Positions 9,783-43,232 of a stretch of 64,000 nucleotides of DNA are shown here, piece by piece. The notes below the pieces were generated by a model. That model had not been told where the DNA came from and did not search any database. It saw nothing but the letters and a program-made list of their open reading frames with translations. This DNA comes from Gammaproteobacteria bacterium. Its GTDB lineage: Bacteria > Pseudomonadota > Gammaproteobacteria > GCA-001735895. The position numbers were made by a program, and so were the translations under genes. The number at the start of each line of letters is the position of its first letter. Positions within the stretch are counted from its first letter, which is position 1. Location: the NCBI GenBank assembly GCA_052030825.1, contig JBPEYE010000392.1:10012-74011 (forward strand). The letters are read 5' to 3'.

Positions 9783-9844
9783 CTAAGTACCGGTTCCGAA
9801 AAAAAACCTTATAATTCTTGATGGTTTGAGGCGAGTTCGAATTA

Positions 9845-10453
9845 ATGAAAGAAGACGACGAAAAATTGGCCCCGCTGCTCGACGACGAGCCGGACGGGGC
9901 GTCCGCGTCGGCGATCGACGCGGTCATCGATGACGTCAATTTACAGTATCGGTTGCGGCGCTATCGCCTGATCGGCGAAGCGATGCGCCGCGAACTCCCG
10001 CCGGCGATCGACACCGGCTTCCATGCCAGGGTCATGGCCGTGATTGGCGATAAGACTCGCGCCGTGCCGCCACGCCGGTCGCGCAGCGAAACCAGGATCC
10101 CGGAACTGGGTCGTTGGCGGCCCTTCGCCGGCCTCGCGGTGGCCGCCAGCGTCGCCGTCGTCACCGTCGCCTTATGGCAACCGCTGTCGCAGCCGACCGC
10201 CACTCCCGATCAATCGCTGGTCGCAAACGATCAGACAAAAATCGACAATCTGGCCAGTGGGCCATTATCGGGCGGCGCGGTACCGGCGTCGACGCAGATC
10301 CAGTCGCTGGGTCTGCGCTGGAAGGTCGACAAGGATGCGCCGGACCTGCAGCAAAAACTCAACGCTTACCTGGTCAATCACACCGAGTATTCGAACTCGG
10401 TGCAGGGCCTGATTCCGCAGGCCCGGGTCGCCGGATTCGATGCCCGCCAATAG
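9845..10453 (+). CDS. rseA: Anti-sigma-E factor RseA/MucA
   Basis: The N-terminal anti-sigma domain (DVNLQYRLRRYRLIGEAMRRELP) is followed by a single TM helix and a periplasmic C-terminus. Its position is immediately after rpoE. Confidence 0.88.
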   Translation: MKEDDEKLAPLLDDEPDGASASAIDAVIDDVNLQYRLRRYRLIGEAMRRELPPAIDTGFHARVMAVIGDKTRAVPPRRSRSETRIPELGRWRPFAGLAVAASVAVVTVALWQPLSQPTATPDQSLVANDQTKIDNLASGPLSGGAVPASTQIQSLGLRWKVDKDAPDLQQKLNAYLVNHTEYSNSVQGLIPQARVAGFDARQ

Positions 10454-11435
10454 CCGCGTGACGCGCCTCGCGGTAGCGCCGCGGCACGCCCTGGTCAGCG
10501 CGCTGCTGACCTCGCTGGTCAGCCTGCCGGCCTGGGCCGACCCGGCAATGGACTGGGTGCAGCGGATGTCGGACGCGATGCGCAATCTCAACTATCAGGG
10601 GGTTTTCGTCTACATGCACGAGAACCAGCTCGAAAGCATGGAAATTTCGCACCGGCGCGACCTCGGCGGCGAAAAAGAGCGCCTGATTTCGCTCAACGGC
10701 GAGGCGCGTGAAGTGATTCGCGACAACCAGAACCTGACCTGTATCTGGCCGTCGAGCCGCAAGGTGGTCGTCGACTCGTCGCGCAAGAACAGCTTTTCGC
10801 CGATATTCATCCCCGACGATATCGCGCGACTGGAAAAGTTCTACGAACTCAAACTGCTCGGCGAGGACCGCGTCGCCGGCGCCGAAACCGTCGTCGTCCA
10901 CATCGATCCGCGCGACGAGTTTCGCTATGGCATGAAATTCTGGATCAACTCGGCCAACGGCCTGATGATGAAATCCAGCCTGCTCGACGAAAGCGGTCGC
11001 GAAATCGAGCAGGTGATGTTCACCAGCCTGGTGGTTTACGACGATCCCGCCGAACTCGATTTCGATACCATGCCGGAAATCGACGACAGCTACACCCTCA
11101 TACGCTACCACCGAGGCGACGACGAAGTCGGCGAGGGCGATGCTGCCTGGGAGTTGACGCGGGCGCCGCGCGGTTTCTGGCGCGAATCGGTACTCAAGCG
11201 CCTGGTCCCGGAAAGCGGCCAGACCATCCGCCAGATGGTTTACACCGACGGGCTGGCCTCGCTGTCGATTTTCATCGAAAAGCAGGGCAGTGGCACAATT
11301 CAGGGCGGAACCTCGATGGGCGCGGTCAATGCCTACATGCGCCTGCTCGCCGACCATTCCATTACCGCAATCGGCGAAGTCCCGGCAATCACGGTCCGGC
11401 AGGTCGCCGAGGCGGTGACCTATCGCGGCCAATAA
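10440..11435 (+). CDS. rseB: Sigma-E regulatory protein RseB/MucB
   Basis: Signal peptide, then DWVQRMSDAMRNLNYQGVFVY, matching MucB/RseB. It overlaps the rseA end. Confidence 0.9.
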   Translation: MPANSRVTRLAVAPRHALVSALLTSLVSLPAWADPAMDWVQRMSDAMRNLNYQGVFVYMHENQLESMEISHRRDLGGEKERLISLNGEAREVIRDNQNLTCIWPSSRKVVVDSSRKNSFSPIFIPDDIARLEKFYELKLLGEDRVAGAETVVVHIDPRDEFRYGMKFWINSANGLMMKSSLLDESGREIEQVMFTSLVVYDDPAELDFDTMPEIDDSYTLIRYHRGDDEVGEGDAAWELTRAPRGFWRESVLKRLVPESGQTIRQMVYTDGLASLSIFIEKQGSGTIQGGTSMGAVNAYMRLLADHSITAIGEVPAITVRQVAEAVTYRGQ

Positions 11436-11484
11436 ATTGCTTGCCGGTCTACTTTCACGCCCGCTTTAAACCTATAATTCACGC

Positions 11485-11943
11485 ATGATTACCGAACAGG
11501 CGATCGTTCGCCGCGCGGGCGATGCTCGGGTAGAACTGGAGCTTGAGCGCGATTCGAGTTGCGGCGGTTGCGAGGTCCGCGAAGGCTGCGGCGTCGGTGC
11601 GCTGGCGCGCCTGCTGGGGCGCCGCCGCAAGTCGCTGGTCATCGACACCGACCGGCCGTTGCGGCCGGGCGATCGGGTCGTGCTTGCTTTACCCGAACGT
11701 GCCCTGGTCAGGCTCAGCCTGCTGGTGTACGGCCTGCCGCTCTTCGGTTTGCTCGCTGGCACGGTGTTGCCGGCGGCGTTGTGGCCGCAGGCGTCGGACG
11801 CGTGGATGGTATTCGGCGGTGTCGCCGGATTTTGCGTGGGTACGAAGCTGGCGGCGTGGCGGGCGGGCAGTTTGCCACGCGGCCAGTTGCTGCCGAAGAT
11901 CGTCGAGATCGAGGTGAACCCGGCTAATCGATCCGGGTCATAG
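11485..11943 (+). CDS. rseC: Sigma-E regulatory protein RseC/MucC
   Basis: Small protein with an N-terminal CGGCEVREGCG motif and two C-terminal TM helices, typical of RseC. Confidence 0.85.
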   Translation: MITEQAIVRRAGDARVELELERDSSCGGCEVREGCGVGALARLLGRRRKSLVIDTDRPLRPGDRVVLALPERALVRLSLLVYGLPLFGLLAGTVLPAALWPQASDAWMVFGGVAGFCVGTKLAAWRAGSLPRGQLLPKIVEIEVNPANRSGS

Positions 11944-11976
11944 GAATATTACTTTTCAATCTGGAAACTGAATCGC

Positions 11977-13395
11977 ATGAAATTTCTCAGCCGGATGATC
12001 CAGGCCACGATACTGGTGGCCATCGTCAACCTGCCGCTGGCCGCGCAGGCCGCGTTGCCGGACTTCACCACGATCGTCGAAGACGCCAAGGACTCGGTGG
12101 TCAACATCAGCACCAAGACGCGCGCGCGGCGCAGTAGCAAGCGCGATTTCAAGCTGCCGGATATCCCGGAAGATTCGCCCTTCGGCGAACTCTTCGACAA
12201 GTTCTTCGATCCGGAGGATTTCAACCGGCGTCGCGATGCCGAGTCGCTGGGTTCGGGGTTCGTCATTTCCGAGGACGGCTATATCCTGACCAACCATCAC
12301 GTCGTCAGCGGCGCCGACGAGGTGATCGTGCGCATGGCCAATCGCAAGGAATACGTCGCCAGGTTGATAGGCTCTGACGAGGCCTCCGACGTCGCGGTGC
12401 TGAAGGTCGACGCGGACGACCTGCCGGTACTGAAATACGGCGACTCGGATGATCTCAAGGTCGGCGAGTGGGTGCTTGCGATCGGTTCGCCGTTCGGCTT
12501 CGATCACACCGTGACCGCCGGCATCGTCAGTGCCAAGGGGCGCAGCCTGCCGAGCGACAACTACGTGCCTTTCATTCAGACCGACGTCGCGATCAACCCG
12601 GGCAACTCGGGCGGACCGCTGTTCAATCTCGACGGCGAGGTCGTCGGCATCAATTCACAGATCTACAGTCGCACCGGCGGCTTCATGGGTTTGTCGTTCG
12701 CAATCCCGATCGAGATGGCGGTCGACGTTGCCAACCAGATCAAGGAGACCGGCACCGTGTCTCGCGGCTGGCTCGGCGTCCTGATCCAGGAAGTCACGCG
12801 CGAGTTGGCCGAATCCTTCGGTATGCAGAATCCGCACGGCGCGCTCGTTGCCAAGGTCATGGATGACAGCCCGGCAGCCGCGGCCGGCCTCGAGGTCGGC
12901 GACGTGATCGTCGAATTCAACGGCAAGAAAGTCATGCGCTCGAGCGCGTTGCCGCCGCTGGTCGGCCGCGCCAAGGTCGGCAAGCGCGCCGAGGTCGTCG
13001 TCATTCGCGACCAGAAGCGCACGAAAATTGGCGTGACCATCGCACAATTGCCGTCCTCGATTACCCAGGCCGCGTATTCGCCCGACGCGAACGCGCCGGC
13101 CCAGGAATCGGCGCTTGGCATGAAGGTCGAAAAACTCGGCAGCGCGGCGCGCAAGCGACTCAATATCGACAAGGGCGTCGAGGTTGCCGAAGTCGACGAG
13201 TTCGGGCCCGCCAGCGAAGCCGGCGTACTCAAGGGCGACGTGATCACGATGATCGACAACCGCGAAATCGAAAGCGTCGAGGACTTCGAGGATATCGCCG
13301 CCGAACTTAAGTCCGGGAAGTCGGTTGCGCTGCTCGTGCAGCGTCGCAGCGGTCCGGTATTTCTCGCCATTCGACCCGACGCCGACGAGGGCTGA
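11977..13395 (+). CDS. degP: Periplasmic serine endoprotease DegP/MucD (HtrA family, two PDZ domains)
   Basis: Signal peptide; trypsin-like catalytic motifs (TNHHVV...DVAVLKV...GNSGGPL); two PDZ-like segments. This is the fifth gene of the algU-mucABCD-like operon. Confidence 0.93.
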   Translation: MKFLSRMIQATILVAIVNLPLAAQAALPDFTTIVEDAKDSVVNISTKTRARRSSKRDFKLPDIPEDSPFGELFDKFFDPEDFNRRRDAESLGSGFVISEDGYILTNHHVVSGADEVIVRMANRKEYVARLIGSDEASDVAVLKVDADDLPVLKYGDSDDLKVGEWVLAIGSPFGFDHTVTAGIVSAKGRSLPSDNYVPFIQTDVAINPGNSGGPLFNLDGEVVGINSQIYSRTGGFMGLSFAIPIEMAVDVANQIKETGTVSRGWLGVLIQEVTRELAESFGMQNPHGALVAKVMDDSPAAAAGLEVGDVIVEFNGKKVMRSSALPPLVGRAKVGKRAEVVVIRDQKRTKIGVTIAQLPSSITQAAYSPDANAPAQESALGMKVEKLGSAARKRLNIDKGVEVAEVDEFGPASEAGVLKGDVITMIDNREIESVEDFEDIAAELKSGKSVALLVQRRSGPVFLAIRPDADEG

Positions 13396-25805: not shown

Positions 25806-25882
25806 TTGGCGTCCCCGGCAGGACTCGAACCTGCAACCTACGCCTTAGGAGGGCGTCGCGCTATCCAGTTGTGCCACGGGGA
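25806..25882 (-). tRNA. tRNA-Arg (anticodon CCT)
   Basis: The reverse complement GTCCCCGTGGCACAACTGGATAGCGCGACGCCCTCCTAAGGCGTAGGTTGCAGGTTCGAGTCCTGCCGGGGACGCCA folds as a cloverleaf with anticodon loop CTCCTAA, a T-arm GGTTCGAGTCC and a 3' CCA. A TAGAAT -10-like hexamer lies 8 nt upstream of the mature 5' end. Confidence 0.92.
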
Positions 25883-25923
25883 CACGGCGTGTTGATTCTA
25901 ACAGCTGGCACCGGTTCGGCGCA

Positions 25924-26940
25924 TCATTCCTGGTAGTAATAGTCGTACTTGACCAGCAGATTGCGCATGAAATCCCACGCCTCGTTGTAAGTCAGCCCGC
26001 TGTCCTGCGGAATGATGATCTTGACATAGAGGTCCTTGCCTTTTTCCTGTTTCAGGCGGCCGAGTCGGCGCTCGACCTCGGCCAGGTTCAAGCGGCTGAA
26101 GTCGCCGCCGGGCTCGCGATAGCGGATGATGTTGCCGTCTTCGCCCTTGATGTAGTAAACCTCGGCGATGTACTTGCCCCTCGCGCTGCGCGCAGGCTTG
26201 ATCAGTTCCTCGTACTTCGACTTGACCGTTTCGTACTCGCCCTTGAGCGTCAGCAGTTGTCGATTGTAGGCTGCGATTTCGTCGTTCAGCAGGGATTTCT
26301 CGCGCGCCAGCTGGTCGCGTTCCTCGGTCAGCAGCGCGATATTGCGCTGTTGATTCTCGCTCGAGGCGACCAGCGCGGCGATTTCCTGACGCGCCGCGGT
26401 AAGGCTTTCGCGGGTCTGTTCGCTCGCCAGTTCCTGTTGCGCGAGACGCTGTCGGAGATCGTCGAGCCGGGCGGACAACTCCTGGGATTGCGCCGCCATC
26501 GCATCGATTTCGAGGTTGGCGGTCTCGAGGCGGGCCCGGGTCTGATCCAGCGTTTGCCGCAGATCGACGTTGGACCGCTCGAGCGATGCAAGGTCCGCCG
26601 CCTGCGCGCGAATCCTGGTTTGCGCGCTGGCGAGCTCCTCGTCGCGCTTTAGCAGCCGCAGGCGCAGGATCGAGTTGGCCTGCTCGGCATTGGCGAGGCG
26701 TTCCTCCAGAGTCACGTTTTCCTGGGTCGTCGATTCGATGATCTGTGCCGCGAGGCGTTCAGCGGCGACGCTTTCCTGAAGCTCGGCGACCAGTTGCCAG
26801 TTGCGCACGACCAGCAGGCTCGTCGCCATCAGGAAGATCAGCGTGATGACCATCATGACGTCGGTGAACGACGGCCAGAAGCTGTTCTCGCCGCCGATTC
26901 CCGCGTGGCTGCCGCCGATCGGAGGGAAGTCCGCGTGCAT
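25924..26940 (-). CDS. ExbD/TolR/MotB-like membrane protein: N-terminal stator-type TM helix with conserved Asp, ~220-aa coiled coil, and a C-terminal domain of unknown family. No OmpA/peptidoglycan-binding domain.
   Basis: The N-terminus SFWPSFTDVMMVITLIFLMATSLLVV matches the ExbD/TolR/MotB plug/TM region, including the protonatable Asp. Residues ~45-260 are heptad-rich (LxxxLxxL, Q/E/R/A rich). The C-terminal ~80 aa (KYIAEVYYIKGEDGNIIRY...LVKYDYYYQE) has no family I recognise. It sits 4 nt downstream of the MotA-like gene. Confidence 0.75.
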   Translation of the reverse strand: MHADFPPIGGSHAGIGGENSFWPSFTDVMMVITLIFLMATSLLVVRNWQLVAELQESVAAERLAAQIIESTTQENVTLEERLANAEQANSILRLRLLKRDEELASAQTRIRAQAADLASLERSNVDLRQTLDQTRARLETANLEIDAMAAQSQELSARLDDLRQRLAQQELASEQTRESLTAARQEIAALVASSENQQRNIALLTEERDQLAREKSLLNDEIAAYNRQLLTLKGEYETVKSKYEELIKPARSARGKYIAEVYYIKGEDGNIIRYREPGGDFSRLNLAEVERRLGRLKQEKGKDLYVKIIIPQDSGLTYNEAWDFMRNLLVKYDYYYQE

Positions 26941-26944
26941 CGGC

Positions 26945-27886
26945 CTAGCCGGGACGGCGCTCCGGCGGCAGGCGGAAACCCTCGCGCAGGATTTGCTTGA
27001 TGCCGTCGATTTCCGCGCCGAGCGCGTCGAGCTGGTCGCGGTTCGCGGCGATGTTCTGCTGCAGCGCCAGGGCCGACTCGTGGTAAACCCCCTGCGTCAG
27101 CCGGAGATTGTCCGCCGCCTCGACGACCGACTGGAGCAGCTCGTTGATCTGGTGCACGATTTCGGCCTCGGTCTTGACGTGCTGCGGCAGCAGGTAGACC
27201 GAGGTCAGGTGCTCGATCCCGCTGAGGAAGTGGGTCTGAACGTCGGCCAGGCGGGTATAGAAGTAACCGAATATCAGATAGGCGACGATCGCGGTGATCG
27301 TCGTCGACAGCGCGGTCGACATGCCGTGGATGACGAGTCCCATGCCGCCGAGGCTGGCGTCGGCCGAGTCGAGCAGATCGGATGCGCCGAGCAGCGCGAT
27401 CGACAGCGCGACGATGGTGCCGAAGACACCGGTCAGAATCAGGATGTTGTTGATGAAGCGGATCAGTCCGAAACGGGTCGCCTCGTCGGCATTCAGCATC
27501 GCCGCCAGCGCACCGTGATTGATTTCCCCGCGCGCCTGCCGGATCGAGCGCATCGTCGTATAACGGCGCGCCAGCACCGAATCGGCAGGCAACCCCTCGA
27601 GCAAATCGGTTTTGCGCGCCTCGACGTTACTGACGAACAGCGCGATTGCCGCTTCCTCGCGGCGATACCGGTACAGGTGATAGAGAATATTGCCGAGCCC
27701 GATGACGAGCAGCGCGAGGATCGCGCTGTTGATGATCACGCCGGTATTGGTCAGCTGATTTTCGAGGTAGAACGGGAAGATCAGGTCGCGGTTCCAGCCA
27801 ATCAGCGCGATCGCGGCCAGGATGACAACGCCGAACTGGATGATGATCCGGGAACTGAGGCTCGTAAGCAGGCGCTGCATATCCAT
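26945..27886 (-). CDS. MotA/TolQ/ExbB proton-channel family protein (4 TM helices) with a ~110-aa cytoplasmic coiled-coil C-terminus
   Basis: Topology is TM1-TM2, a cytoplasmic loop, then TM3-TM4. The TM3-TM4 pair (FINNILILTGVFGTIVALSIALLGA; GMGLVIHGMSTALSTTITAIVAYLIFGYFY) resembles the MotA_ExbB channel core. Confidence 0.75.
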   Translation of the reverse strand: MDMQRLLTSLSSRIIIQFGVVILAAIALIGWNRDLIFPFYLENQLTNTGVIINSAILALLVIGLGNILYHLYRYRREEAAIALFVSNVEARKTDLLEGLPADSVLARRYTTMRSIRQARGEINHGALAAMLNADEATRFGLIRFINNILILTGVFGTIVALSIALLGASDLLDSADASLGGMGLVIHGMSTALSTTITAIVAYLIFGYFYTRLADVQTHFLSGIEHLTSVYLLPQHVKTEAEIVHQINELLQSVVEAADNLRLTQGVYHESALALQQNIAANRDQLDALGAEIDGIKQILREGFRLPPERRPG

Positions 27887-28064: not shown

Positions 28065-29360
28065 GTGGATATCGTGATTTTGGCTACCGTCTTGCGACGC
28101 TTTTTTGACCACGGCAGGCTAACGATGATCGATGCCCGGGGCGAACGCCATCGCCTCTGCGAACGAGAGGGCCCGACCGTTGTATTTCGAATCACCGATC
28201 GCTCGACCGAACGCAAGCTCCTGCGCTGCAGTTCGCTCGCCTGGGGCGAGGCCTACATGGACGGAGGCCTGGTCGTGGAGGAGGGCAGCCTGGCCGAGTT
28301 TCTCGAGATTCTCGAGCATTCGGACAAGCAGTTCGATGCGACCTGGATTGCCGAACTGAAGCGCATCATTTACAGCATCATTGCCGCCGGCGCGCATTAC
28401 AACCCGATCGGCCGGGCGCAGAAGAACGTGGCCCACCACTACGACCTGTCGGGCGAGTTGTATGACCAGTTTCTCGACGCCGACCGGCAATATTCCTGTG
28501 CCTATTTTCGCCACGGCGACGAAGACATCGACACCGCGCAGTTGCTGAAGAAACGTCACATCGCGGCCAAGCTCGACATCAAACCGGGGATGCGCGTACT
28601 CGACATCGGCTCGGGCTGGGGCGGGCTTGCGCTTTACATTGCCAAGCAGTTCGATTGTCGCGTTACCGGCGTGACCCTGTCCGAGGAACAGTTGAAGCTG
28701 TCGCGCCAGCGCGCGGTCGACGCCGGGCTGGAAGACCGGGTGCACTTCGAATTGCGCGATTATCGGATGCTCGACGAGCGCTTCGACCGCGTCGTCTCGG
28801 TCGGCATGCTCGAGCACGTCGGCCAGTTCCAGTACGGCGAGTACTTCCGCAAGGTCCGCGATTTGCTCGAGCCCGACGGTGTTGCGCTGATCCACACGAT
28901 CGCGCGCATGAACAAGCCGCGGCCGATCAATGCGTGGATCCGCAAGTACATCTTTCCGGGCGCCTACCTGCCGTCGGCGTCACAGTTGACCCGCGCCATC
29001 GAGAACACCGGATTGTGGCTGACCGATTTCGAGAATCTGCGCCTGCACTACGCCGAAACGCTCAAGCGCTGGCACGAGCGCTTCGCCAGCAACCGGGCTC
29101 GCGTTGCCGAACTCTATGACGAGCGCTTTTGCCGCATGTGGGAGCTTTACCTGCTCGGTTGCGAGGCGACCTTCCGCTACCTCGACATTACCGTGTTCCA
29201 GCTGCAGATCACGCGCGACGTGGGCGCGCTGCCGATTACGCGCGATTACATGCACGAGGTCGAGCGCGAACTCGCGCGCAAGGATCGGCCGACGGTTACC
29301 GCGATCGGCAGCGGCAAGCGCACCCGCCGCAAGGCCGCCGGCCGCGCCAGCACGGGCTAG
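28065..29360 (+). CDS. cfa: Cyclopropane-fatty-acyl-phospholipid synthase
   Basis: SAM-binding motif VLDIGSGWGGLALYIA plus conserved CFAS blocks (EHVG, YFPG). Start GTG at 28065, or the internal Met at 28125. Confidence 0.9.
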   Translation: MDIVILATVLRRFFDHGRLTMIDARGERHRLCEREGPTVVFRITDRSTERKLLRCSSLAWGEAYMDGGLVVEEGSLAEFLEILEHSDKQFDATWIAELKRIIYSIIAAGAHYNPIGRAQKNVAHHYDLSGELYDQFLDADRQYSCAYFRHGDEDIDTAQLLKKRHIAAKLDIKPGMRVLDIGSGWGGLALYIAKQFDCRVTGVTLSEEQLKLSRQRAVDAGLEDRVHFELRDYRMLDERFDRVVSVGMLEHVGQFQYGEYFRKVRDLLEPDGVALIHTIARMNKPRPINAWIRKYIFPGAYLPSASQLTRAIENTGLWLTDFENLRLHYAETLKRWHERFASNRARVAELYDERFCRMWELYLLGCEATFRYLDITVFQLQITRDVGALPITRDYMHEVERELARKDRPTVTAIGSGKRTRRKAAGRASTG

Positions 29361-29372
29361 GGAGCCGACCGC

Positions 29373-30740
29373 TCAGAGCATCTGCTTGCGCAGATGATTG
29401 ATCAGGTCGATACGCGTGATCAACCCGTAGAAGACGTCCCCGTCGGCAATGATCGCGACCTTGTCCGACTTGAACAGCGTGACGATGTCGTCGATCGAAG
29501 CGCTCGGCGGCATCGTGTCGAGATCCCTGACCATGACCTCGCCGACCGCCATCTGGAAGCTGTCCTTGTCCTCGTAAATCCCGAGCAGGATGTCCGATTC
29601 GTCGATCAGCCCGACGATGTGCCCGGCGTCGACCACCGGTAGCTGCGAAACGTCGAACATGCGCATGCGTTTGTAGGTCGTGATCAGATTGTCTTCCGGG
29701 GTCACCGTCACCATGTCGCCGCTGTCCATCGGTCGCGCGATGAGATCGCGCAGGTCGCCGTGGGACTCGCGTTCGAGCAGGCCCTGGTCGGCGAGCCACG
29801 AATCGTTGAACGATTTGTTCAGGTACTTGTTGCCGGTGTCGCAGGCGAAGGTCAGAACGCGCTTCGGTTCGGTCTGTTCGCGGCAGTAGCGCAATGCCGC
29901 CGACAGCAGCGTGCCGCTCGACGACCCGGCGATGATGCCCTCGAGGCGCAGCAACTCGCGCTGCGTGGCAAAGGCTTCGCGGTCGGAAATGGCATAGGCT
30001 TTCTTGACCAGGCTGATATCGCAGATCGGCGGCAGGAAATCCTCGCCGATGCCCTCGACCAGCCACGAGCTGGCCTTCGGCGTGGTGCCGGTATTGATCG
30101 TGTCGGCGAGAATCGAACCGACCGGGTCGGCGACGATCATTTCGAGCTCGGGCAGATTCTCGTGGAAAAAATGACCGAGCCCGGTCACCGTGCCGCTGGA
30201 ACCGACGCCGACGACCACCGCGTCGAGTCGGCCGTCCATCTGCCGCAGGATTTCGGGGCCGGTGACGGTCTCGTGGGTTTTCGGGTTGTTCGGATTGGAG
30301 AATTGATCGATGAAGTACGAATTCGGAATTTCAGCGGCGAGGCGCTTGGCGTAGTCCTGGTAGTACTCGGGGTGACCTTTTTGCACGTCCGAGCGCGTCA
30401 GCCGCACGTCGACGCCCATCGCGCGAATATGGCGAATCTTGTCGGGGCTCATCTTGTCCGGAATTACGAGAATCAGCTGATAGCCCTTCTGCGCCGCGAC
30501 GAGGCCGAGGCCGAGGCCGGTGTTGCCGGCGGTCGCCTCGATGATCGTGCCGCCGGGTTTTATCTTGCCCTCGCGTTCGGCCGCTTCGATCATGCACACC
30601 GCGATGCGGTCCTTGATCGAGCCGCCGGGATTCTCCGACTCCATCTTGACATAGAGTTCGCAGGGGCCGGTGTCGAACTTGCTGAGTTTCAGGATTGGCG
30701 TTTCGCCGATCAATTCGAGCACTGAATTAACGATGGTCAT
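29373..30740 (-). CDS. Cystathionine beta-synthase (PLP cysteine-synthase fold plus tandem CBS domains)
   Basis: N-terminal PLP fold-II with the lysine motif (SIKDR) and GNTG loop, and a C-terminal Bateman (2x CBS) module. Confidence 0.88.
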   Translation of the reverse strand: MTIVNSVLELIGETPILKLSKFDTGPCELYVKMESENPGGSIKDRIAVCMIEAAEREGKIKPGGTIIEATAGNTGLGLGLVAAQKGYQLILVIPDKMSPDKIRHIRAMGVDVRLTRSDVQKGHPEYYQDYAKRLAAEIPNSYFIDQFSNPNNPKTHETVTGPEILRQMDGRLDAVVVGVGSSGTVTGLGHFFHENLPELEMIVADPVGSILADTINTGTTPKASSWLVEGIGEDFLPPICDISLVKKAYAISDREAFATQRELLRLEGIIAGSSSGTLLSAALRYCREQTEPKRVLTFACDTGNKYLNKSFNDSWLADQGLLERESHGDLRDLIARPMDSGDMVTVTPEDNLITTYKRMRMFDVSQLPVVDAGHIVGLIDESDILLGIYEDKDSFQMAVGEVMVRDLDTMPPSASIDDIVTLFKSDKVAIIADGDVFYGLITRIDLINHLRKQML

Positions 30741-30762
30741 GGTCGCTCCTCCTGCGGCGGAC

Positions 30763-31872
30763 TCAGAAACGGGAACCAGTATAACTGACGCGGCAGGCGG
30801 ACAGCGCGAGCCACTCGGGATCGATCTCGATGCCCCAGCCGGGCGCGTCTGAAATTTCGACTCGGCCGTCGGTGATTTCGTAACCGGGACTGAATATTCC
30901 CGCTTGCCACGGGTAATAGTCGAGCCCCTCGATCGAGTACTCGACGTACTTGCCGGCGTTTTCGATCGCCGCCATGAAATGGATCGAGAACAGCGTCACC
31001 AGCGACAGGTTGGCCGAGTGCAGCGTGCACGGCAAGCCGGCGGTGCGCGCGTATTCGGCGACCTCGAGGGTGCGCGTGATACCCCCCATGTAGCAGATGT
31101 CGGGCTGTATCACGTCGACCGCGCGGGTATCGATCATTTGCCGCCACACGATCAGGTTGTTGTCCTGTTCGCCACCGGTCACGTCGATGTCGAGCGCCGC
31201 GGTAACCTCGCGCGTCCAGTCGAGTTGCCAGTAGGGACAGGGCTCCTCGAAGTGGTTTATGCCGTAATCGGTGAGCAGCCGGCCGATTTCGATGGCCTTT
31301 TGCGGCGTGTACGCGCTGTTGGCATCGACCAGCAGCGTCGCGTCGTCGCCGAGCGTCTCGCGCATCGTCTTGACGATCGCCTCGGTGCGCCCCGGCCACT
31401 GGTCGCTATCGCGGCCGCACTCGCGCCCGATGCGGAACTTGAAGGCGCTGAAACCGTGCGCTTCGCGCAGCCCGAGCATGCGTTCGGCCTCGGCTTCGGG
31501 CGTAATTTCGCGCTGCATGCTCGACGCGTAGACCGGGAAATCGCGACGTTCGCCGCCGAGCAATTGCTGCACGCGCTTGCCGGCACGCTTGCCGGCGATG
31601 TCCCACAACGCGGTGTCGACGCCGGCGAGCGCGCGGTACAGGTAGGTTCCCTGGAACTTGTGCTCGCGCTCGAGCACGGTCTGCGTGACCGCGTCGATGT
31701 CGGCCGCGTTCATGCCGAGTACATGGGGTGCGACCTGGCGATGCAGCACCTCGACCGTGAGATCGGCCATGTAGGGCGAAACCTGTCCCCAGCCCTCGTC
31801 GCCTTCGTCGCTGCGCACCCGGACCAGCGCCACGTATTCGGTGGCGAAGGTCTCGATGCTGGCGATAATCAT
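30763..31872 (-). CDS. Mandelate racemase/muconate-lactonizing enzyme family protein (enolase superfamily; function unassigned)
   Basis: A 369-aa protein with a capping domain and a TIM barrel with metal-ligand positions (KFRIG..., LLVDANSAYT, EEPC, DVIQPD). Its start follows the upstream stop after 1 nt. Confidence 0.8.
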   Translation of the reverse strand: MIIASIETFATEYVALVRVRSDEGDEGWGQVSPYMADLTVEVLHRQVAPHVLGMNAADIDAVTQTVLEREHKFQGTYLYRALAGVDTALWDIAGKRAGKRVQQLLGGERRDFPVYASSMQREITPEAEAERMLGLREAHGFSAFKFRIGRECGRDSDQWPGRTEAIVKTMRETLGDDATLLVDANSAYTPQKAIEIGRLLTDYGINHFEEPCPYWQLDWTREVTAALDIDVTGGEQDNNLIVWRQMIDTRAVDVIQPDICYMGGITRTLEVAEYARTAGLPCTLHSANLSLVTLFSIHFMAAIENAGKYVEYSIEGLDYYPWQAGIFSPGYEITDGRVEISDAPGWGIEIDPEWLALSACRVSYTGSRF

Positions 31873-31873
31873 C

Positions 31874-33073
31874 TCAGCCGGCGAGCCGGTCGAGCGCCTG
31901 CCTGAGATCGGCGATCAGGTCATCGGCCGACTCGAGCCCCGCCGACAGCCGCACGAGGCCGTCGGTGATCCCGGCGGCGAGCCGTTCCTCGACCGGCATG
32001 TCGGCATGGGTCATCGTCACCGAATGCGTGACCAGCGATTCGACCGAACCGAGATTTTCGGCGAGGCTCCAGAGTTCGAGCGTATCCATCAATTGCTTGC
32101 CGGCGGCGACGCCGCCCTTGACCTCGAACCACAGCATCGAGCCGTGCCCGCTGGCCTGGCGGTCGGCGAGTTCCTTTTGCGGGAAGGACTCGAGGCCGGG
32201 ATAGGCAACCCGCTCGACCATCGGGTGGGTCTCGAGAAAGCGCCCGACCTCGAGCGCGTTTTTCGACTGCGCCTCGAGGCGCGTGCTCATCGTCTTGATG
32301 CCCTGCAGGGTGTAGAACGCCACCATCGGCGACATGTTGCTGCCGAGGCAGTTGCGCACGAACATGATGCGCTCGAGATGGTCGGGGTCGGACGCGGTAA
32401 TCGAGCCGCCGACGCTGATGTTATGACCTTCCATGAACTTGGTCGTACTGTGCAGCGTGATGTCGGCGCCGAGCTCTAGCGGACGCTGGTAGTAGGGCGT
32501 CAGGAAGGTGTTGTCGACGACGTGCGGGATACCGCGGGCGCGGGCGATCTCGGACACCGCGGCGATATCGGTCAGCTTGAGCGTCGGGTTGGCCGGCGTC
32601 TCGGTAAAAATCAGCTTCGTGTTGTCACGAATCGCCGCGTCGACATTGGCGGCGTCGGCGGTGTCGACGAAACTGGCCTCGAGCCCCCAGCGGTTCAGTA
32701 CCTTGGTCGTCACCCGGTGGGTGCCGCCGTAGACGACGTCGGACAGGACGATATGATCGCCGGCGTCGAGCAGCGCCATCAGCGTGCAGGAGGTCGCGGC
32801 CATCCCGGTGGCGAAACACAGGCTGCCGACGCCGCCCTCGAGCGCGGTGATGCGCGCCTCGAGCGCGGTCACGGTCGGATTACCCGAGCGGCTGTAGGAA
32901 TAGCCCTTGGCGAGATACTGGTCGACCGATTCCTGGACGTAGGTCGTGCTCTGGTAGATCGGCGTCAGGATCGCACCGGTGACCGGGTCGGGGGACACGC
33001 CGGCGTGCACCTCGCGGGTCTTGAAATGGGGCTTGTCGCGGCCGCTCATCGGCTCTCCTCGGGGTGGTGGCAA
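31874..33073 (-). CDS. Cystathionine gamma-lyase / gamma-synthase family PLP enzyme (trans-sulfuration)
   Basis: Cys/Met-metabolism PLP family with the lysine motif (TKFMEGHN-like region) and an N-terminal YSRSGNPT block. The alternative Met start at 33049 is likelier. Confidence 0.88.
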   Translation of the reverse strand: MPPPRGEPMSGRDKPHFKTREVHAGVSPDPVTGAILTPIYQSTTYVQESVDQYLAKGYSYSRSGNPTVTALEARITALEGGVGSLCFATGMAATSCTLMALLDAGDHIVLSDVVYGGTHRVTTKVLNRWGLEASFVDTADAANVDAAIRDNTKLIFTETPANPTLKLTDIAAVSEIARARGIPHVVDNTFLTPYYQRPLELGADITLHSTTKFMEGHNISVGGSITASDPDHLERIMFVRNCLGSNMSPMVAFYTLQGIKTMSTRLEAQSKNALEVGRFLETHPMVERVAYPGLESFPQKELADRQASGHGSMLWFEVKGGVAAGKQLMDTLELWSLAENLGSVESLVTHSVTMTHADMPVEERLAAGITDGLVRLSAGLESADDLIADLRQALDRLAG

Positions 33074-33097: not shown

Positions 33098-35254
33098 ATG
33101 ACAGCACAAGCCGGCGGCGTCGCGGTGAAACACTGGCGCCGGCACCTGCCTTCTTGCACAATGGCCCGCATGGCTGCCGTCGCCTATCCCGCGGTGGGCT
33201 TCTCCGCCTGCCCCCACGACTGCCCGAGCACCTGCGCGCTCGAAGTCGAACTGCTCGACGCGCGCACCGTCGGGCGCGTGCGCGGTGCGCGCGATAACAG
33301 CTACACCGCCGGGGTACTGTGCGCCAAGGTCGCCCGTTACGCCGAGCGCGTGCACCATCCCGAGCGTCTCGGCAAACCCTTGCGACGGCGTGGACCCAAA
33401 GGGCAGGGTCGCGACGCCTTCGTCGAAATTGGCTGGGACGACGCGCTCGACGAAATCGCCGATCGATACGCATGCGCCATTCAGCGCCACGGCAGCGAAA
33501 CGCTGTGGCCGTACCACTACGCCGGTACGATGGGGCTGCTGCAACGCGACAGCATCGAACTGTTTCGCAACCTGCTGAAGACGTCGCGGCAGCATTCGAC
33601 TTTCTGCATCACCCTCGCCGATGCCGGCTGGCTTGCCGGCGCCGGGATCAAGCGCGGCGCCGATCCGCGCCGAATGGCGGACAGCGACCTGATCGTCAAC
33701 TGGGGCGGAAACCCGGTCTATACCCAGGTCAACGTAATGCACCACGTCGCCCGCGCGCGGCGTGAGCGCGGCGCGCGGCTGATCGTCGTCGACACCTACC
33801 GTAACGCAACCGCGCAAAAGGCGGACCAGTTCCTGATGCTGTGTCCGGGCACTGACGGCGCGCTCGCCTGCGCGGTCATGCATCAGCTGTTTGCCGATGA
33901 TCTCGTCGACCGCGCCTACCTCGAGCGCTATACCGATGCGCCGGACGAACTCGAGGCGCATCTGGCGGCGCGCACGCCGGCCTGGGCCGCGGAAATTACC
34001 GGCCTCGACGCGGCCGAAATCATCGAGTTCGCGCGCTGCTACGGCTCGACGCCGAACAGTTTTCTGCGTCTCGGCTATGGTTTTACGCGCTCGCGTAATG
34101 GCGCGGTCAACATGCATGCCGCCGCCTGTCTGCCGGCATTGACCGGCGCCTGGCAATATCCGGGCGGCGGCGCACTCTACGCCAACGGCGGTATGTACGC
34201 CATCGATCAGTCCGTCATCAAGGGGCTCGACGTGCTCGACCCGGCGACCCGTGTCCTCGACCAGTCGCGCATCGGCGACGTACTCGTCGGCAATCCGCGC
34301 GATCTGGGCGACGGACCGCCGGTCACCGCGCTGCTGGTGCAGAACACCAACCCGGTGGTGGTCGCGCCGGAGACGCGCAAGGTGCTCGACGGTTTCGCGC
34401 GCAACGACCTGTTCGTTTGCGTGCACGAGCAGTTCATGACCGAAACCGCGGCGCAGGCCGACATCGTGCTGCCGGCGACGATGTTTCTCGAGCACGACGA
34501 TTTTTACCAGGCCGGCGGGCATACCCACCTGCAGGTCACGCGCGCGCTGATCGAGCCGTTCGCCGAGTGCCGATCGAATCACTGGGTGCTGGGGCAGATC
34601 GCCAGGCGCCTCGGCCACAGCCATCCAGGGTTCGAGCAAACGCCGCGCGCGCTGATCGACGACGCCCTGCGGCGCAGCGGGTTGCCCGACGAGGCGACGC
34701 TTTTCGCGGCGCACTGGCACGATTGCGCGACGGACTTCGAACACACCAATTTTCTCGACGGATTCGAAACCCCGGACCGCCGGTTTCATTTCAAACCCGA
34801 CTGGAGCGGGGTCGGACCGGATCACGCGGCACTGCCGGCGCTGCCGGATCATTTGCCGGTGATGCACGAAGCCGATGACCAGCATCCTTTTCGCCTGGTC
34901 GCGGCGCCGGCGCGGCAATTCCTCAATACCAGCTTTACCGAAACCCCGACCTCGCGCCGCGCCGAGCGCCGGCCGACGCTGTTGATTCATCCGGCCGATG
35001 CCGCCGCGCTCGGCGTCGTCGACGGAGGTCTCGCCCGCATCGGCAACCGGCTGGCCGACATCTTGCTGCACGCGCGGCATTTCGACGGCGTGCAGCGCGG
35101 CGTCGTCATCGTCGAGAGTATCTGGCCGAATCGCGATTTCATCGAGGGTCTCGGGGTCAACGCGCTGGTGTCGGCCGAACCCGGGCTGCCCAACGGCGGT
35201 GCGATCTACCACGATACCGCGGTCTGGATTCGTGCTGCGGCGGAGGACGATTGA
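33098..35254 (+). CDS. Molybdopterin-dependent oxidoreductase (MopB superfamily, FdhF/YdeP-like), N-terminal [4Fe-4S] motif
   Basis: CPHDCPSTC...C cysteine cluster at the N-terminus, with molybdopterin-guanine-dinucleotide binding blocks. About 700 aa. The start may be the Met at 33161. Confidence 0.85.
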   Translation: MTAQAGGVAVKHWRRHLPSCTMARMAAVAYPAVGFSACPHDCPSTCALEVELLDARTVGRVRGARDNSYTAGVLCAKVARYAERVHHPERLGKPLRRRGPKGQGRDAFVEIGWDDALDEIADRYACAIQRHGSETLWPYHYAGTMGLLQRDSIELFRNLLKTSRQHSTFCITLADAGWLAGAGIKRGADPRRMADSDLIVNWGGNPVYTQVNVMHHVARARRERGARLIVVDTYRNATAQKADQFLMLCPGTDGALACAVMHQLFADDLVDRAYLERYTDAPDELEAHLAARTPAWAAEITGLDAAEIIEFARCYGSTPNSFLRLGYGFTRSRNGAVNMHAAACLPALTGAWQYPGGGALYANGGMYAIDQSVIKGLDVLDPATRVLDQSRIGDVLVGNPRDLGDGPPVTALLVQNTNPVVVAPETRKVLDGFARNDLFVCVHEQFMTETAAQADIVLPATMFLEHDDFYQAGGHTHLQVTRALIEPFAECRSNHWVLGQIARRLGHSHPGFEQTPRALIDDALRRSGLPDEATLFAAHWHDCATDFEHTNFLDGFETPDRRFHFKPDWSGVGPDHAALPALPDHLPVMHEADDQHPFRLVAAPARQFLNTSFTETPTSRRAERRPTLLIHPADAAALGVVDGGLARIGNRLADILLHARHFDGVQRGVVIVESIWPNRDFIEGLGVNALVSAEPGLPNGGAIYHDTAVWIRAAAEDD

Positions 35255-35619
35255 TGAAACAGCATGAAAAAATCGACTACGTCGAATTCCCGGCCCGCGA
35301 TCTCGAGGCGACCCGAAGGTTTTTCAGCGCCGCCTTCGGCTGGACCTTCGACGAATACGGGCCCGACTATTGCGCGTTCACCGGCCAGGGTCTCGACGGC
35401 GGCTTTTATCGCGCGCCGCTGTATTCGAGCACGCAAGCCGGCGGCGCCTTGCTGGTGTTCTACAGCGACGACCTCGAGGCGACCCTGGCATCCGTCGAGC
35501 GCGCCGGCGGCAAGATCGTCAAACCGATCTTCGCCTTTCCCGGGGGGCGTCGTTTTCATTTTACCGAACCCAGCGGCAACGAGCTTGCGGTCTGGTCGGA
35601 TGCCGGCAGCGAGGAATAG
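35254..35619 (+). CDS. VOC family protein (glyoxalase/bleomycin-resistance/dioxygenase fold)
   Basis: A 121-aa protein with a VOC beta-alpha-beta-beta-beta module. The ATG overlaps the upstream stop (TGATG) and a GGAGG Shine-Dalgarno lies 7 nt upstream. Confidence 0.75.
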   Translation: MKQHEKIDYVEFPARDLEATRRFFSAAFGWTFDEYGPDYCAFTGQGLDGGFYRAPLYSSTQAGGALLVFYSDDLEATLASVERAGGKIVKPIFAFPGGRRFHFTEPSGNELAVWSDAGSEE

Positions 35620-35623
35620 ACCG

Positions 35624-36256
35624 GTGGTCGGGATTTCCGCGGACGAAGCCCTCGAGCGCCTGGTCGACGGCAACCGGCGCTTCGTTGCCGATCTGCGCGC
35701 CGGCCTCGGCGAATCGGCGAGTGCGCGGAGCTATCAGCTGGTCGCCGAGCAGCGCCCGTTCGCGATCGTGATTGGCTGCTCCGATGCGCGCGTGCCGGCC
35801 GAGATCGTCTTCGATCAGGGCCTCGGCGAACTGTTCGTGATCCGCGTCGCCGGCAACGTCATTGCGCCGTCGCAGATCGGTAGCGTCGAGTTCGCCGCCG
35901 AACGCTTCGGCACGCCGCTGGTGGTGGTGCTCGGCCACACCGGTTGCGGTGCGGTCGAGGCCACGCTCGAAGAACTCGAGCGCCCGAGCGACAGCCGCTC
36001 GCCGAACCTGAGCGCAATCGTCGAGCGCATCCGGCCGGCCGTCGAGCCGCTGTTGCAATCCGGGTCGGGCGACGATGCCGCGCGCCTGATGTCGCGGGCG
36101 GTGCGCGCCAACATTCGTGCATCGGTCGACCAATTGCGTCATGGCTCGGAAATCCTCGAGCGGCTGCTCGACGACGGCCGCCTCGTGATCGTCGGCGCCG
36201 AGTACTCGCTCGAAACCGGCGAGGTCGAGTTTCTCGAATCCGGCGACGAGTCGTGA
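35624..36256 (+). CDS. Beta-class carbonic anhydrase
   Basis: CSDARV...HTGCGAV zinc ligands (Cys, Asp-Arg dyad, His, Cys). The GTG start at 35624 follows the VOC stop by 4 nt. The longer track ORF from 35264 is a frame artefact. Confidence 0.85.
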   Translation: MVGISADEALERLVDGNRRFVADLRAGLGESASARSYQLVAEQRPFAIVIGCSDARVPAEIVFDQGLGELFVIRVAGNVIAPSQIGSVEFAAERFGTPLVVVLGHTGCGAVEATLEELERPSDSRSPNLSAIVERIRPAVEPLLQSGSGDDAARLMSRAVRANIRASVDQLRHGSEILERLLDDGRLVIVGAEYSLETGEVEFLESGDES

Positions 36257-38001
36257 GCGAGGGGCAGGCCGACCCTCGCGAAGCATTACGCCGCCTCGCG
36301 GCGGCGCCATTGCCGGTCGTCGCCGACTTGCGGGCCCGCGCGCGCGAAACGGCCGCGCAAATACGTCTCGGGCGCTCGGCGTTCCTCGAGGCGCACGGCG
36401 TTGACTCCGAATTCGACTACAAGCGCCAGGCCATGCGCGACGGACAGATCATGTATCACGCGCACATCGGCCTCAACGATGTCGACGCGACGACTGCGGC
36501 GCTGGCCGCGATCCATCGAGCACTCGCGGCGTCCGGTCATCGCCTCGACCGTGCCGGCTTCGCGCTCGATCGGCGTATGGGCCTCCCCCCCGGCCGACGC
36601 GCCGCGGTCGCGGCGGAAACCGGGCCGATGCTGGAGCGCGCAAGCGACTGGCGGGCGCTGGCGCAAACGGCGCCGATTCAGCCCCACCTCGGCGATTTCA
36701 TGATCGGCCAGCCGGCCTCGGTCGCCAACGCGGTCGCCGCGCTCGAGATCGGCTGTACCACCGTCGGTAACCTGTCACAGTACTTCAGCTTTGCCGCGCC
36801 CGGCTGGGACGATATTGCCGAAACCGCGGGGCAAACCTGCGAAGCGATGCTGATGCTCGCCGAGCTTCGCGAGCGTGGCGTGATGCTGCATTCCTACCTC
36901 GAAGACGGCTTCGGCGCGCTGTTCCGGCACTGCGCAACGGTCGCCGCCTGGGCGATGCTCGAGCATTACCTCGTCGAAGCGCTGCTCGGAGGACGGCTGG
37001 CGCACTGCATCGGCGGCCTGACCCGCGATCCGATTCGCCGGGTCGGCTGGGTCATCGCGCTCGATCGTATCCATCAGGGCGATCACGTCGGCTCGATGAT
37101 CTACGGCGATACGCTGTCCTTCGGCCACGAGTTCGAACGCAACCGCGCGCTGACCGCCGAGTACCTGAGCTGGGATATTCTTGCCCAGCTGCATACGCCG
37201 AGCGGCCACGCGGTGCTGCCGTTGCCGGTCACCGAGGCGCTTCGCATCCCGTCGGCGGACGAGATCATCGAGGCGCAATTATTCGGCCGACGCGTCGAGG
37301 CGAGCGCGCGACGGCTCTACCCGCATGTCGATTTCGGCGCCGCCGAGGCGTTCGCCGATGCCGTTTGCCGCGACGGCCAGGTCATATTCGAACGCGCGCT
37401 CGCCGGGCTCGCCGACGCTGGGGTCGACACGCGAAACCCGCTGCGCCTGCTTTACGTGCTCAAGCAACTGGGCGCGGCGCGCTTCGAATCGCTGTTCGCC
37501 GCTGATCTCGAGCTCGACGCGGCGCTGGTCACCGACATGTGCGCGCTGTCGCGCGACCTCGTCGACGAACACCGCGATCTGTTTGCCAGCGACGAGATGC
37601 GCGCGCGCGTCGCCGGGCGGCGCTTCGTCGTCGCCTCGACCGACGTCCACGAACACGCCGCCGGCGCGCTCGCGCAGTTGCTCGGCGAGGCCGGTGCCGG
37701 GGTGGTCTGGCTCGGTGCCGAGCAATCGCCGGGCGACCTCGTCGCCGCGTTGCTGCGCGAGTCGGCTGACGCGCTGCTGGTGAGTACCCACAACGGCATG
37801 GCCCTCGAATACGCGCGACAATTGCGCGAACGGCTCGATCGCGCGAATCTGTCGCTGCCGGTCGTCATCGGCGGGGTGCTGAACCAGAAGACTGCCGACG
37901 CCGAGTTGCCGGCGCCGGTGCTCGATGAGCTACGCGCGCTCGGCATGCGGCCGGCGGTGAGCCTGCCGGGGCTCGGCAAGCTGCTCGAGTTCAAACCCTA
38001 G
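36253..38001 (+). CDS. Cobalamin-binding-domain protein: ~430-aa N-terminal domain of uncertain family fused to a C-terminal B12-binding Rossmann-like domain
   Basis: The C-terminus (VVASTDVHEHAAG...VSTHNG...VVIGGV) resembles the DxHxxG-SxL-GG B12-binding domain but with atypical spacing. The N-terminal family is not recognised; any mutase or TIM-barrel assignment is a guess. The GTG start overlaps the carbonic anhydrase stop (GTGA). Confidence 0.65.
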   Translation: MSEGQADPREALRRLAAAPLPVVADLRARARETAAQIRLGRSAFLEAHGVDSEFDYKRQAMRDGQIMYHAHIGLNDVDATTAALAAIHRALAASGHRLDRAGFALDRRMGLPPGRRAAVAAETGPMLERASDWRALAQTAPIQPHLGDFMIGQPASVANAVAALEIGCTTVGNLSQYFSFAAPGWDDIAETAGQTCEAMLMLAELRERGVMLHSYLEDGFGALFRHCATVAAWAMLEHYLVEALLGGRLAHCIGGLTRDPIRRVGWVIALDRIHQGDHVGSMIYGDTLSFGHEFERNRALTAEYLSWDILAQLHTPSGHAVLPLPVTEALRIPSADEIIEAQLFGRRVEASARRLYPHVDFGAAEAFADAVCRDGQVIFERALAGLADAGVDTRNPLRLLYVLKQLGAARFESLFAADLELDAALVTDMCALSRDLVDEHRDLFASDEMRARVAGRRFVVASTDVHEHAAGALAQLLGEAGAGVVWLGAEQSPGDLVAALLRESADALLVSTHNGMALEYARQLRERLDRANLSLPVVIGGVLNQKTADAELPAPVLDELRALGMRPAVSLPGLGKLLEFKP

Positions 38002-43032: not shown

Positions 43033-43232
43033 CAATCTGCCGCCAGCCGGTTGTTGCGAAACCGCGATTATGTTATAAAGCGCGCGCCCTCGGCAACCGC
43101 GGGGTCCGGATTCGCCCGGAACCCGCCGGCCGGCGGCCAATTAACGACACACACATGCCGACAACGCCCTCATGGGTGCCCGTGATACCAGTGAGCGGGT
43201 CGTGTGCGGCGGGCATGTGGAGGCTTAACCCC

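Follow-up and report, generated by a model that had tools for sequence, protein, structure and literature searches.

We analyzed a 64,000-nucleotide (nt) stretch of contig JBPEYE010000392.1 from a gammaproteobacterial genome (assembly GCA_052030825.1), which we call the window. Between positions 33,098 and 38,001 four plus-strand genes encode a molybdenum oxidoreductase (Mo enzyme) of the MopB family, a VOC protein, a beta-carbonic anhydrase (CA) and a protein with a cobalamin (B12)-binding domain (B12 protein). In the reading that we prefer, with a probability of about 0.6, the four genes very probably share one transcript, the string is a lineage-specific mosaic and not a conserved four-part pathway, and the B12 protein is a B12-dependent radical enzyme built like GlmE and methylmalonyl-CoA mutase (MCM). 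A formate/CO2/B12 operon, as a preliminary description of this DNA first framed it, is not supported.

The B12 protein and its family

The B12 protein is laid out as a TIM barrel (residues 1 to ~330), a helical region (~335–455) and a His-on B12 Rossmann domain of the GlmS type (457–582). The Rossmann domain, which had already been recognized at the C-terminus, matched Pfam B12-binding (PF02310) over residues 460–545 with 43 bits (cut-off 32.1). Its PDB matches included a B12-mutase small subunit (8e-9), HcmB and GlmS. The accompanying description of its motif TDVHEHAAG as atypical did not stand. It is a plain DxHxxG motif in which Gly is replaced by Ala (D464-V-H466-E-H-A469), and D464 and H466 align with PDB entries 2yxb and 4r3u. 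Ala fills the Gly position in 22 of 22 members of the window's clade, and Gly is found there in 24 of 37 diverse members of the wider family. GlmS was the best NCBIfam match of the B12 domain in 32 of these 37.

The N-terminal ~440 residues had no Pfam or NCBIfam match in any of the 37 members, and the Pfam models Met_asp_mut_E and MM_CoA_mutase did not match any of them at E ≤ 1. When the family profile was run against the PDB, it matched B12 domains only, with no solved structure for the N-domain. AlphaFold predicted a beta/alpha barrel, a helical region and a Rossmann domain (pLDDT 82.6, pTM 0.87). Foldseek matched this model to MCM (E 2e-9 and weaker; query TM-score (TMq) up to 0.53), to ornithine 4,5-aminomutase (OraE) and lysine 5,6-aminomutase KamD (both with E within 2e-9 to 1e-6), and to GlmE (1cb7_B and 6h9e_B) with a target TM-score (TMt) of 0.50–0.52 over ~445 columns. 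MetH and CarH matched more weakly and via the Rossmann part (MetH TMq 0.25–0.4). The earlier guess that the N-domain is related to mutases or TIM barrels was thus borne out. Profile and structure searches of the 36253–38001 product gave PF02310 above its cut-off and, as judged by the structural similarity of a predicted model only, a mutase-type TIM barrel that faces the B12 domain.

The model points to a glutamate-mutase/MCM-like architecture in which a predicted substrate barrel is fused to the His-on GlmS-type domain. Of the conserved residues, R100, R107, R108, R116, D148, D218, E237 and E328 are candidates for the pocket lining. With MCM and its relatives isobutyryl-CoA mutase and 2-hydroxyisobutyryl-CoA mutase, the B12 protein shares the order barrel, linker and B12 Rossmann domain in one chain and the best full-length Foldseek E-values. 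In contrast to this family, it is ~150 residues shorter and lacks a Pfam MM_CoA_mutase match; we saw no MeaB-type G-protein chaperone or acyl-CoA genes nearby, and the VOC protein has no epimerase signature. With GlmE/GlmS and GlmL it shares the barrel, the GlmS-type domain and a partial GlmL domain in one homologue. Unlike GlmE/GlmS, it is a single chain whose barrel has no detectable GlmE sequence similarity. Nor did we notice methylaspartase near the B12 homologues, where the neighbors are P5CR-, AIG2- and HyuA-like proteins or, in the window, VOC protein and a flavoprotein.

The homologue with the GlmL part, P0145 (857 aa; 36% identity over 554 aa), has, beyond its B12 domain, 139 residues of GlmL/MutL, the accessory protein of glutamate mutase, which cover profile positions 3–140 of 450 (Pfam 3e-44; NCBIfam accessory_GlmL 7.6e-43). 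The joined domains may be a genuine fusion, or may stem from a truncated contig or from two gene calls merged into one. No reactivase or chaperone gene (GlmL, MeaB) was found in the window; elsewhere the family offers this partial GlmL and a HyuA-like ASKHA ATPase near 13 of 60 distant loci. Because of the fold and the GlmL-bearing homologue, we infer that the cofactor is adenosylcobalamin. An uncharacterised adenosylcobalamin radical isomerase with an amino-acid-like substrate is the most likely identity of the B12 protein.

Two other identities were rejected. Position 477, 11 residues after the ligand His, presumably corresponds to the Lys that binds pyridoxal phosphate (PLP) in OraE and KamE. 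It is Leu in 28 of the 37 members and Lys in none, and the family has no invariant Lys, which argues against a PLP aminomutase (OraSE, KamDE). A corrinoid methyltransferase was rejected because the B12-binding_2 cap (PF02607) did not match any of the 37 members; the homologue with a partial GlmL domain also counts against it.

An exhaustive search with the N-domain gave 371 representative clusters at 50% identity. Most members are ~585 aa long and some are split proteins of ~430 aa. In a pattern scan, at least 538 of 185,579 species-representative genomes from several phyla carried a member. Our literature search, with subscription papers outside its reach, found no characterised member. The family is new and apparently unstudied; the class of adenosylcobalamin isomerases is already known. 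To our knowledge, the isomerase and eliminase reactions described for adenosylcobalamin number only about a dozen. A further family with at least 538 carrier genomes, an unmodelled N-domain and a strongly conserved reductase partner is therefore of interest to B12 enzymology, and cultured carriers exist (Phyllobacterium zundukense, Shinella, Maritalea porphyrae and Sulfitobacter).

The gene string and its conservation

Table 1. Positions of the four genes, the convergent flavoprotein gene and other features in the window (ORF, open reading frame)
Feature	Position	Strand	Remarks
Mo-enzyme ORF	33098–35254	+	stop TGA 35252–35254
VOC gene, 121 aa	35254–35619	+	ATG 35254; stop TAG 35617–35619
Beta-carbonic anhydrase (CA) gene, 210 aa	35624–36256	+	GTG 35624; stop TGA 36254–36256
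B12 gene, 582 aa	36253–38001	+	GTG 36253
Predicted VAO/PCMH-type flavoprotein gene, 525 aa	38016–39593	-	convergent to B12 gene; divergent member of its type; weak FAD_binding_4; AlphaFold/Foldseek
CBS-like, MR_MLE and cystathionine-lyase-family genes	29373–33073	-	divergent from Mo gene
CMAS-like methyltransferase gene	28065–29360	+	308 bits
Gene pair (313 aa, 338 aa)	25924–27886	-	no confident Pfam matches
tRNA gene	25810–25883	-	
t44 small RNA	43130–43229	+	53.6 bits
Antisense ORF, 710 aa	33080–35212	-	mirrors true genes
Antisense ORF, 1414 aa	38073–42317	+	mirrors true genes

Pfam backed the domain identity of all four products, as they had been assigned before (Mo enzyme, VOC, beta-CA and B12-binding). 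The Mo stop and the VOC start overlap by 1 nt (TGATG), with GGAGGA 6 nt 5′ of the VOC ATG. A 4-nt gap separates the VOC and CA genes, with GAGGA 8 nt 5′ of the CA GTG. At the last junction (GTGA) the GTG start of the B12 gene overlaps the TGA stop of the CA gene. The coordinates and junctions of the preliminary description were hence confirmed. An alternative in-frame start of the CA gene is ATG 35600; GTG 35624 appears the better candidate because its Shine-Dalgarno spacing fits better.

A consensus scan found no promoter or terminator signal above chance within the string. Rfam gave no cobalamin riboswitch; its only matches in the window were one tRNA and one t44 small RNA. Sequence, junctions and the lack of internal signals above chance all support one tightly packed co-directional string, and the four genes very probably form a single transcript. 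Such overlapping or tight junctions are ordinary in bacterial operons. They argue for co-transcription and are not unusual per se, and overlapping stop and start codons are no proof of a common pathway, which is a lesson for genome annotation.

We compared 83 loci, 80 from species-representative genomes (found with the family alignment as query) and 3 from encoding contigs, by tblastn with the window's proteins and with the B12 homologue as anchor. Twenty-seven of the loci belong to the close clade. Of these 27, 20 had the VOC gene, 20 the gene for the 525-aa flavoprotein, 13 a full Mo gene and 6 the CA gene. The order Mo-VOC-(CA)-B12 occurred only where the B12 protein was at least 64% identical, and all of these were gammaproteobacterial metagenome-assembled genomes (MAGs). 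In those MAGs the whole stretch is syntenic, from the CBS, MR_MLE and cystathionine-lyase genes through glnD-map-rpsB, so that co-occurrence carries little functional weight. The preliminary description had named a lack of neighbor conservation in relatives as grounds for refuting it, and beyond the immediate clade this is what we saw. We found the genes as neighbors only in close, syntenic relatives, and both the distant B12 homologues and the Mo orthologues lie in other surroundings.

Remnants of the Mo gene were found in L008 (2291–2443) and L039 (7375–7494). They comprise the last ~40–50 codons, and an intact VOC gene follows directly. The stubs are deletion remnants of a recent Mo-enzyme loss in some lineages. 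The Mo gene was absent in L010, L016 and L020. In L015, L018, L021 and L022, where the B12 protein is 62–63% identical, the B12 gene stands beside glnD without Mo, VOC, CA or flavoprotein genes.

The VOC gene is the most constant gene directly upstream of the B12 gene in the clade, including loci without a Mo gene. It was seen at every locus with a B12 identity of at least 64% whose contig reaches far enough upstream. The flavoprotein gene was absent where the VOC gene was absent, and it joins the VOC and B12 genes in this clade only. The stable unit of the clade, flanked by glnD and a cystathionine gamma-lyase-family gene, is thus VOC, B12 enzyme and convergent flavoprotein. Mo enzyme and CA are facultative additions to it and dispensable within the clade.

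The CA is an ordinary beta-carbonic anhydrase in a variable slot. It matched Pro_CA with 135 bits (Pfam), and its nearest relative was Mycobacterium tuberculosis Rv3588c (CanB; 1e-31, PDB 2a5v/1ym3). The zinc site of beta-carbonic anhydrases is intact, since CSDAR and HTGCG align with Rv3588c, and with the zinc ligands and the Asp-Arg pair kept we saw no difference that matters. By tblastn the gene was present in L002, L003, L004, L007, L017 and L035. In most clade loci the slot is empty and VOC and B12 genes are 10–120 nt apart. In L013 (7317–7913) and L014 (7339–7962) it holds an unrelated predicted multi-pass membrane protein of ~200 aa with a shared YWFYRHW. On this pattern of presence and absence we rejected a functional coupling of the CA; the earlier tie of the CA to formate/CO2 turnover is not supported.

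The VOC protein matched Pfam Glyoxalase (52 bits), with further generic matches to Glyoxalase_6 and Ble-like models. Its nearest solved structures were Rv0577 and uncharacterised VOC proteins, and the NCBIfam methylmalonyl-CoA epimerase model gave no match. With these only generic matches and nearest structures, it was rejected as an analogue of methylmalonyl-CoA epimerase.

The 525-aa flavoprotein has a weak FAD_binding_4 match (Pfam). Its AlphaFold model (pLDDT 84.5) matched D-lactate dehydrogenase, D-2-hydroxyglutarate dehydrogenase and alkyl-DHAP synthase (AGPS) with Foldseek E-values of 1e-14 to 1e-12. The model suggests a divergent VAO/PCMH-type flavoprotein with a D-2-hydroxyacid-dehydrogenase-like fold. 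Its family counts 331 proteins, all of ~525 aa and mostly labelled hypothetical.

Partners elsewhere and a candidate reaction

The distant set consists of 60 loci with B12 homologues of 35–62% identity from Desulfobacterales, Synergistaceae, Anaerolineae, Aminicenantes, Alpha- and Gammaproteobacteria, Oceanospirillales and rhizobial plasmids. A gene of the pyrroline-5-carboxylate (P5C) reductase family (P5CR; P5CR_dimer + F420_oxidored) lay within 3 kb in 35 of the 60, usually less than 200 nt away and on the same strand. The dominant partner of the B12-protein family elsewhere is thus a P5CR-family reductase. An AIG2/GGACT-like protein was near 14 of these loci and a GntR regulator near 13. 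The HyuA-like ATPase mentioned above was mainly found in Synergistaceae and has a faint MutL match. Transporters of the Dpp, TRAP and Liv types also occur at these loci, as do peptidases of families M19, M20, M24 (prolidase-like) and M42. L049 and L068 have MttB-family genes close to the B12 homologue. No homologues of P5CR, AIG2, HyuA or OPLAH were found in the 64-kb window.

Several single loci are informative. In L027 the B12 homologue adjoins a gene (10569–12221) whose product unites an M19 membrane dipeptidase and an AIG2/GGACT-like domain. In L051 the neighbor (9702–12071) combines an APH-type kinase and a class-III aminotransferase in one protein, which we take to be the architecture of a hydroxylysine kinase/phospho-lyase. 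In Phyllobacterium zundukense, proline-racemase-family, FAD oxidoreductase, DapA-family, aldehyde dehydrogenase and amino-acid ABC transporter genes form a cluster that is divergent from a GntR-P5CR-B12 unit. Bacterial clusters for hydroxyproline catabolism have this composition. A pair of DapA-family and aldehyde-dehydrogenase genes was seen in L031.

A full 5-oxoprolinase-like gene was found in 2 of the 60 distant loci. In L036 (9836–13435) and L078, gammaproteobacterial MAGs with B12 homologues of 56–59% identity, a 1199-aa 5-oxoprolinase-like protein (HyuA-HyuB fusion) is encoded directly after the B12 gene. The neighbor may reflect a functional link to lactam opening, or coincidence.

If the B12 protein is an adenosylcobalamin enzyme, the reaction could run as follows. 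Adenosylcobalamin would be bound base-off/His-on via H466, and homolysis of the Co-C bond would give the 5′-deoxyadenosyl radical. The radical would take a hydrogen from the substrate in the barrel, a small amino-acid-like molecule that bears carboxylate, and a 1,2-rearrangement, with or without elimination, would follow. In most other lineages the product might be, or collapse to, a cyclic imine, which the adjacent P5CR-family enzyme would reduce. The window's lineage has no P5CR gene close by; candidates for upstream or downstream steps there would be the FAD enzyme and the VOC protein.

In its most specific form, this scheme would have the B12-protein family supply its P5CR-type partner with a cyclic imine made from an amino acid that carries a hydroxyl group or some other modification, with the window's lineage re-wired to the VOC protein and the VAO-type flavoprotein. 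We consider this version rather doubtful. Its candidate substrates would be 4- or 3-hydroxyproline and 5-hydroxylysine, from imported dipeptides or gamma-glutamyl compounds. A known parallel is HypD, the glycyl-radical trans-4-hydroxy-L-proline dehydratase, which has an adjacent P5C reductase (PMC7077986). Dehydration of hydroxyproline is without precedent in B12 enzymology (PMC7077986). As with HypD, members of the B12-protein family outside the window's clade pair a predicted radical enzyme by context with a P5CR-family gene. They also occur in loci for amino-acid and dipeptide uptake, and the Phyllobacterium zundukense homologue lies beside a cluster like those of hydroxyproline catabolism. 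Their fold and cofactor are unrelated to those of HypD. In the B12 eliminases known so far the cofactor is bound base-on, and a B12 counterpart of HypD is weakened since this family is His-on. It may still be an attractive, if unproven, reading by analogy. The family could reveal a B12-dependent route in amino-acid and collagen-peptide turnover in sediments, guts and rhizospheres.

The Mo enzyme, alternative readings and other features

The most likely start of the Mo gene is Met22 (33161), which gives a product of 697 aa, because this is the length of a 100%-identical database protein (P0271) and because the orthologue alignment opens there. The Pfam trio of the MopB/DMSO-reductase superfamily was complete and above the gathering scores (Molybdop_Fe4S4 27.9, Molybdopterin 124.5 and Molydop_binding 55.9 bits). 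The N-terminal Fe-S motif is C38-x3-C42-x3-C46, followed by a further Cys. The protein has no Tat signal.

The preliminary description had called it a formate-dehydrogenase-like enzyme of the FdhF/YdeP type. The Mo enzyme passed no NCBIfam family cut-off. Its best score was for Fdh-alpha (TIGR01591; 216 bits, cut-off 666), followed by DmsA/YnfE (203, cut-off 778), type II DMSO reductase (166, cut-off 985), PhsA (149, cut-off 694) and BisC (148, cut-off 1018); FdhF/YdeP (TIGR01701) reached 46.9 bits with a cut-off of 582. We then aligned its residues with FdhH, HDCR FdhF, F420-dependent formate dehydrogenase and two NAD-dependent formate dehydrogenases (Rhodobacter/Methylobacterium). The [Sec/Cys]-His dyad (U140-H141 of FdhH) never appeared in the Mo enzyme, which has Cys-Ile or, with another gap placement, Ala-Asp. 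The Arg of RGQNNVQG (R333) is missing as well; the region aligns as ...YANG---GMYAIDQ, in which neither Arg nor QNN occurs. The local motif STFCITLADAGW is kept in 16 orthologues, so the dyad is consistently absent. Its Cys is the likely Mo ligand, as counted back from a conserved Ala-Gly.

The Mo enzyme resembles FdhF/FdhH in size, cytoplasmic location, N-terminal Fe-S domain, MopB trio and best PDB E-value (1e-37). It differs from them in the Cys-Ile at the dyad, the missing RGQNNVQG Arg and the C-x3-C-x3-C form of the Fe-S motif. Catalytic residues and family cut-offs rule out a formate dehydrogenase. The protein is a cytoplasmic, probably Cys-ligated MopB oxidoreductase of no assigned subfamily. 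The labels "anaerobic selenocysteine-containing dehydrogenase" and formate dehydrogenase on this MopB family are unfounded. On long contigs, Mo orthologues of 67–69% identity stand alone among unrelated genes, without VOC, CA or B12 neighbors.

These results bear directly on the formate/CO2 model, in which a formate-dehydrogenase-like Mo enzyme would work with a CA that handles CO2/bicarbonate and with a B12 protein of the same C1-related pathway. It would fit that formate dehydrogenases are nominally the closest match of the Mo enzyme in the PDB and NCBIfam, that the CA zinc site is intact and that the genes are tightly coupled in this genome. However, the dyad and the Arg are absent also in the orthologues, the best score is about one third of its cut-off with DmsA, type II DMSO reductase, PhsA and BisC nearly equal, the CA is confined to 6 of 27 clade loci, and Mo orthologues elsewhere lack CA and B12 neighbors. 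We regard the model as very improbable. Of more weight, though still unlikely, is a pathway specific to the clade, recently assembled and partly lost, in which Mo enzyme, VOC protein, CA, B12 mutase and flavoprotein act on one substrate family; a small organic acid, for example, might be oxidised or reduced and then rearranged. The overlapping codons and the 13 loci with Mo, VOC, B12 and flavoprotein genes together speak for it, and the D-2-hydroxyacid-dehydrogenase fold of the flavoprotein makes a hydroxy-acid variant conceivable. Glutamate mutase accepts 2-hydroxyglutarate slowly. Such a pathway is hard to reconcile with loci in which the Mo gene is a remnant (L008) or gone (L010, L016, L020) while VOC, B12 and flavoprotein genes are intact, and with the variable CA slot; regional synteny makes the co-occurrence weak evidence.

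Other readings concern the B12 protein itself. It could be a B12-sensing regulator or a methylcobalamin protein in which a methyltransferase is fused to a corrinoid domain. MetH and corrinoid proteins have His-on B12 domains too, profile and Foldseek searches matched them and CarH via the Rossmann domain, and two loci have MttB-family genes nearby. But the full-length matches are adenosylcobalamin mutases and aminomutases (TMq 0.5 versus 0.25–0.4 for MetH), the cap domain is missing in the 37 members, one homologue has a partial GlmL, neither a RamA-type activase nor a methyl-acceptor methyltransferase is a recurrent neighbor, and there is no DNA-binding domain. This identity is improbable, and we think the same of a fused glutamate mutase (GlmE-GlmS) or an orthologue of 2-methyleneglutarate mutase. 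The latter, too, has its B12 domain at the C-terminus of one ~600-aa chain. Predicted fold and domain order are alike, and the GlmS-type domain and the homologue with partial GlmL fit too. Against this stand the lack of any Met_asp_mut_E (Pfam) or GlmE (NCBIfam) match in the 37 members and the partners, which are instead P5CR-, AIG2- and HyuA-like. Methylaspartase, methylitaconate isomerase and nicotinate-fermentation genes did not recur in ORF clustering or tblastn, in which they were not sought by name.

Our preferred reading, a lineage-specific mosaic around a GlmE/MCM-like radical enzyme, also has points against it. No similarity to the GlmE or MCM sequences is detectable in the N-domain, and the Gly of the B12 motif is Ala in the window's clade. 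The choice of adenosyl- over methylcobalamin is an inference for the whole family. The clade lacks the P5CR, AIG2 and HyuA partners, so its function may differ from that of the 46–62% identical homologues. Many clade loci lie on short MAG contigs, which makes absences partly uncertain. Finally, the Mo-VOC-CA-B12 coupling in this genome could be a real local pathway that is invisible to comparative data.

Several other features of the window are listed in Table 1. The minus-strand genes divergent from the Mo gene encode a cystathionine beta-synthase-like protein (PALP+CBS), an enolase-superfamily MR_MLE protein and a member of the cystathionine gamma-lyase/synthase family; the MR_MLE gene had no match in several relatives (L013, L016, L025). 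Between the CBS gene and a MotA/ExbB-like pair lies a gene for a cyclopropane-fatty-acyl-phospholipid-synthase-like methyltransferase (CMAS). Among the fetched loci it is shared only with the closest relative, L004, and looks like a recent insertion. The pair itself consists of a 313-aa weakly MotA/ExbB-like protein and a 338-aa coiled-coil protein, and accompanies the locus in many relatives. The two long antisense ORFs are high-GC artefacts and could mislead anyone who reads the DNA by its ORFs. The t44 small RNA is probably upstream of rpsB, by analogy with the map-rpsB order in L001 and L003, and both it and the tRNA gene are ordinary.

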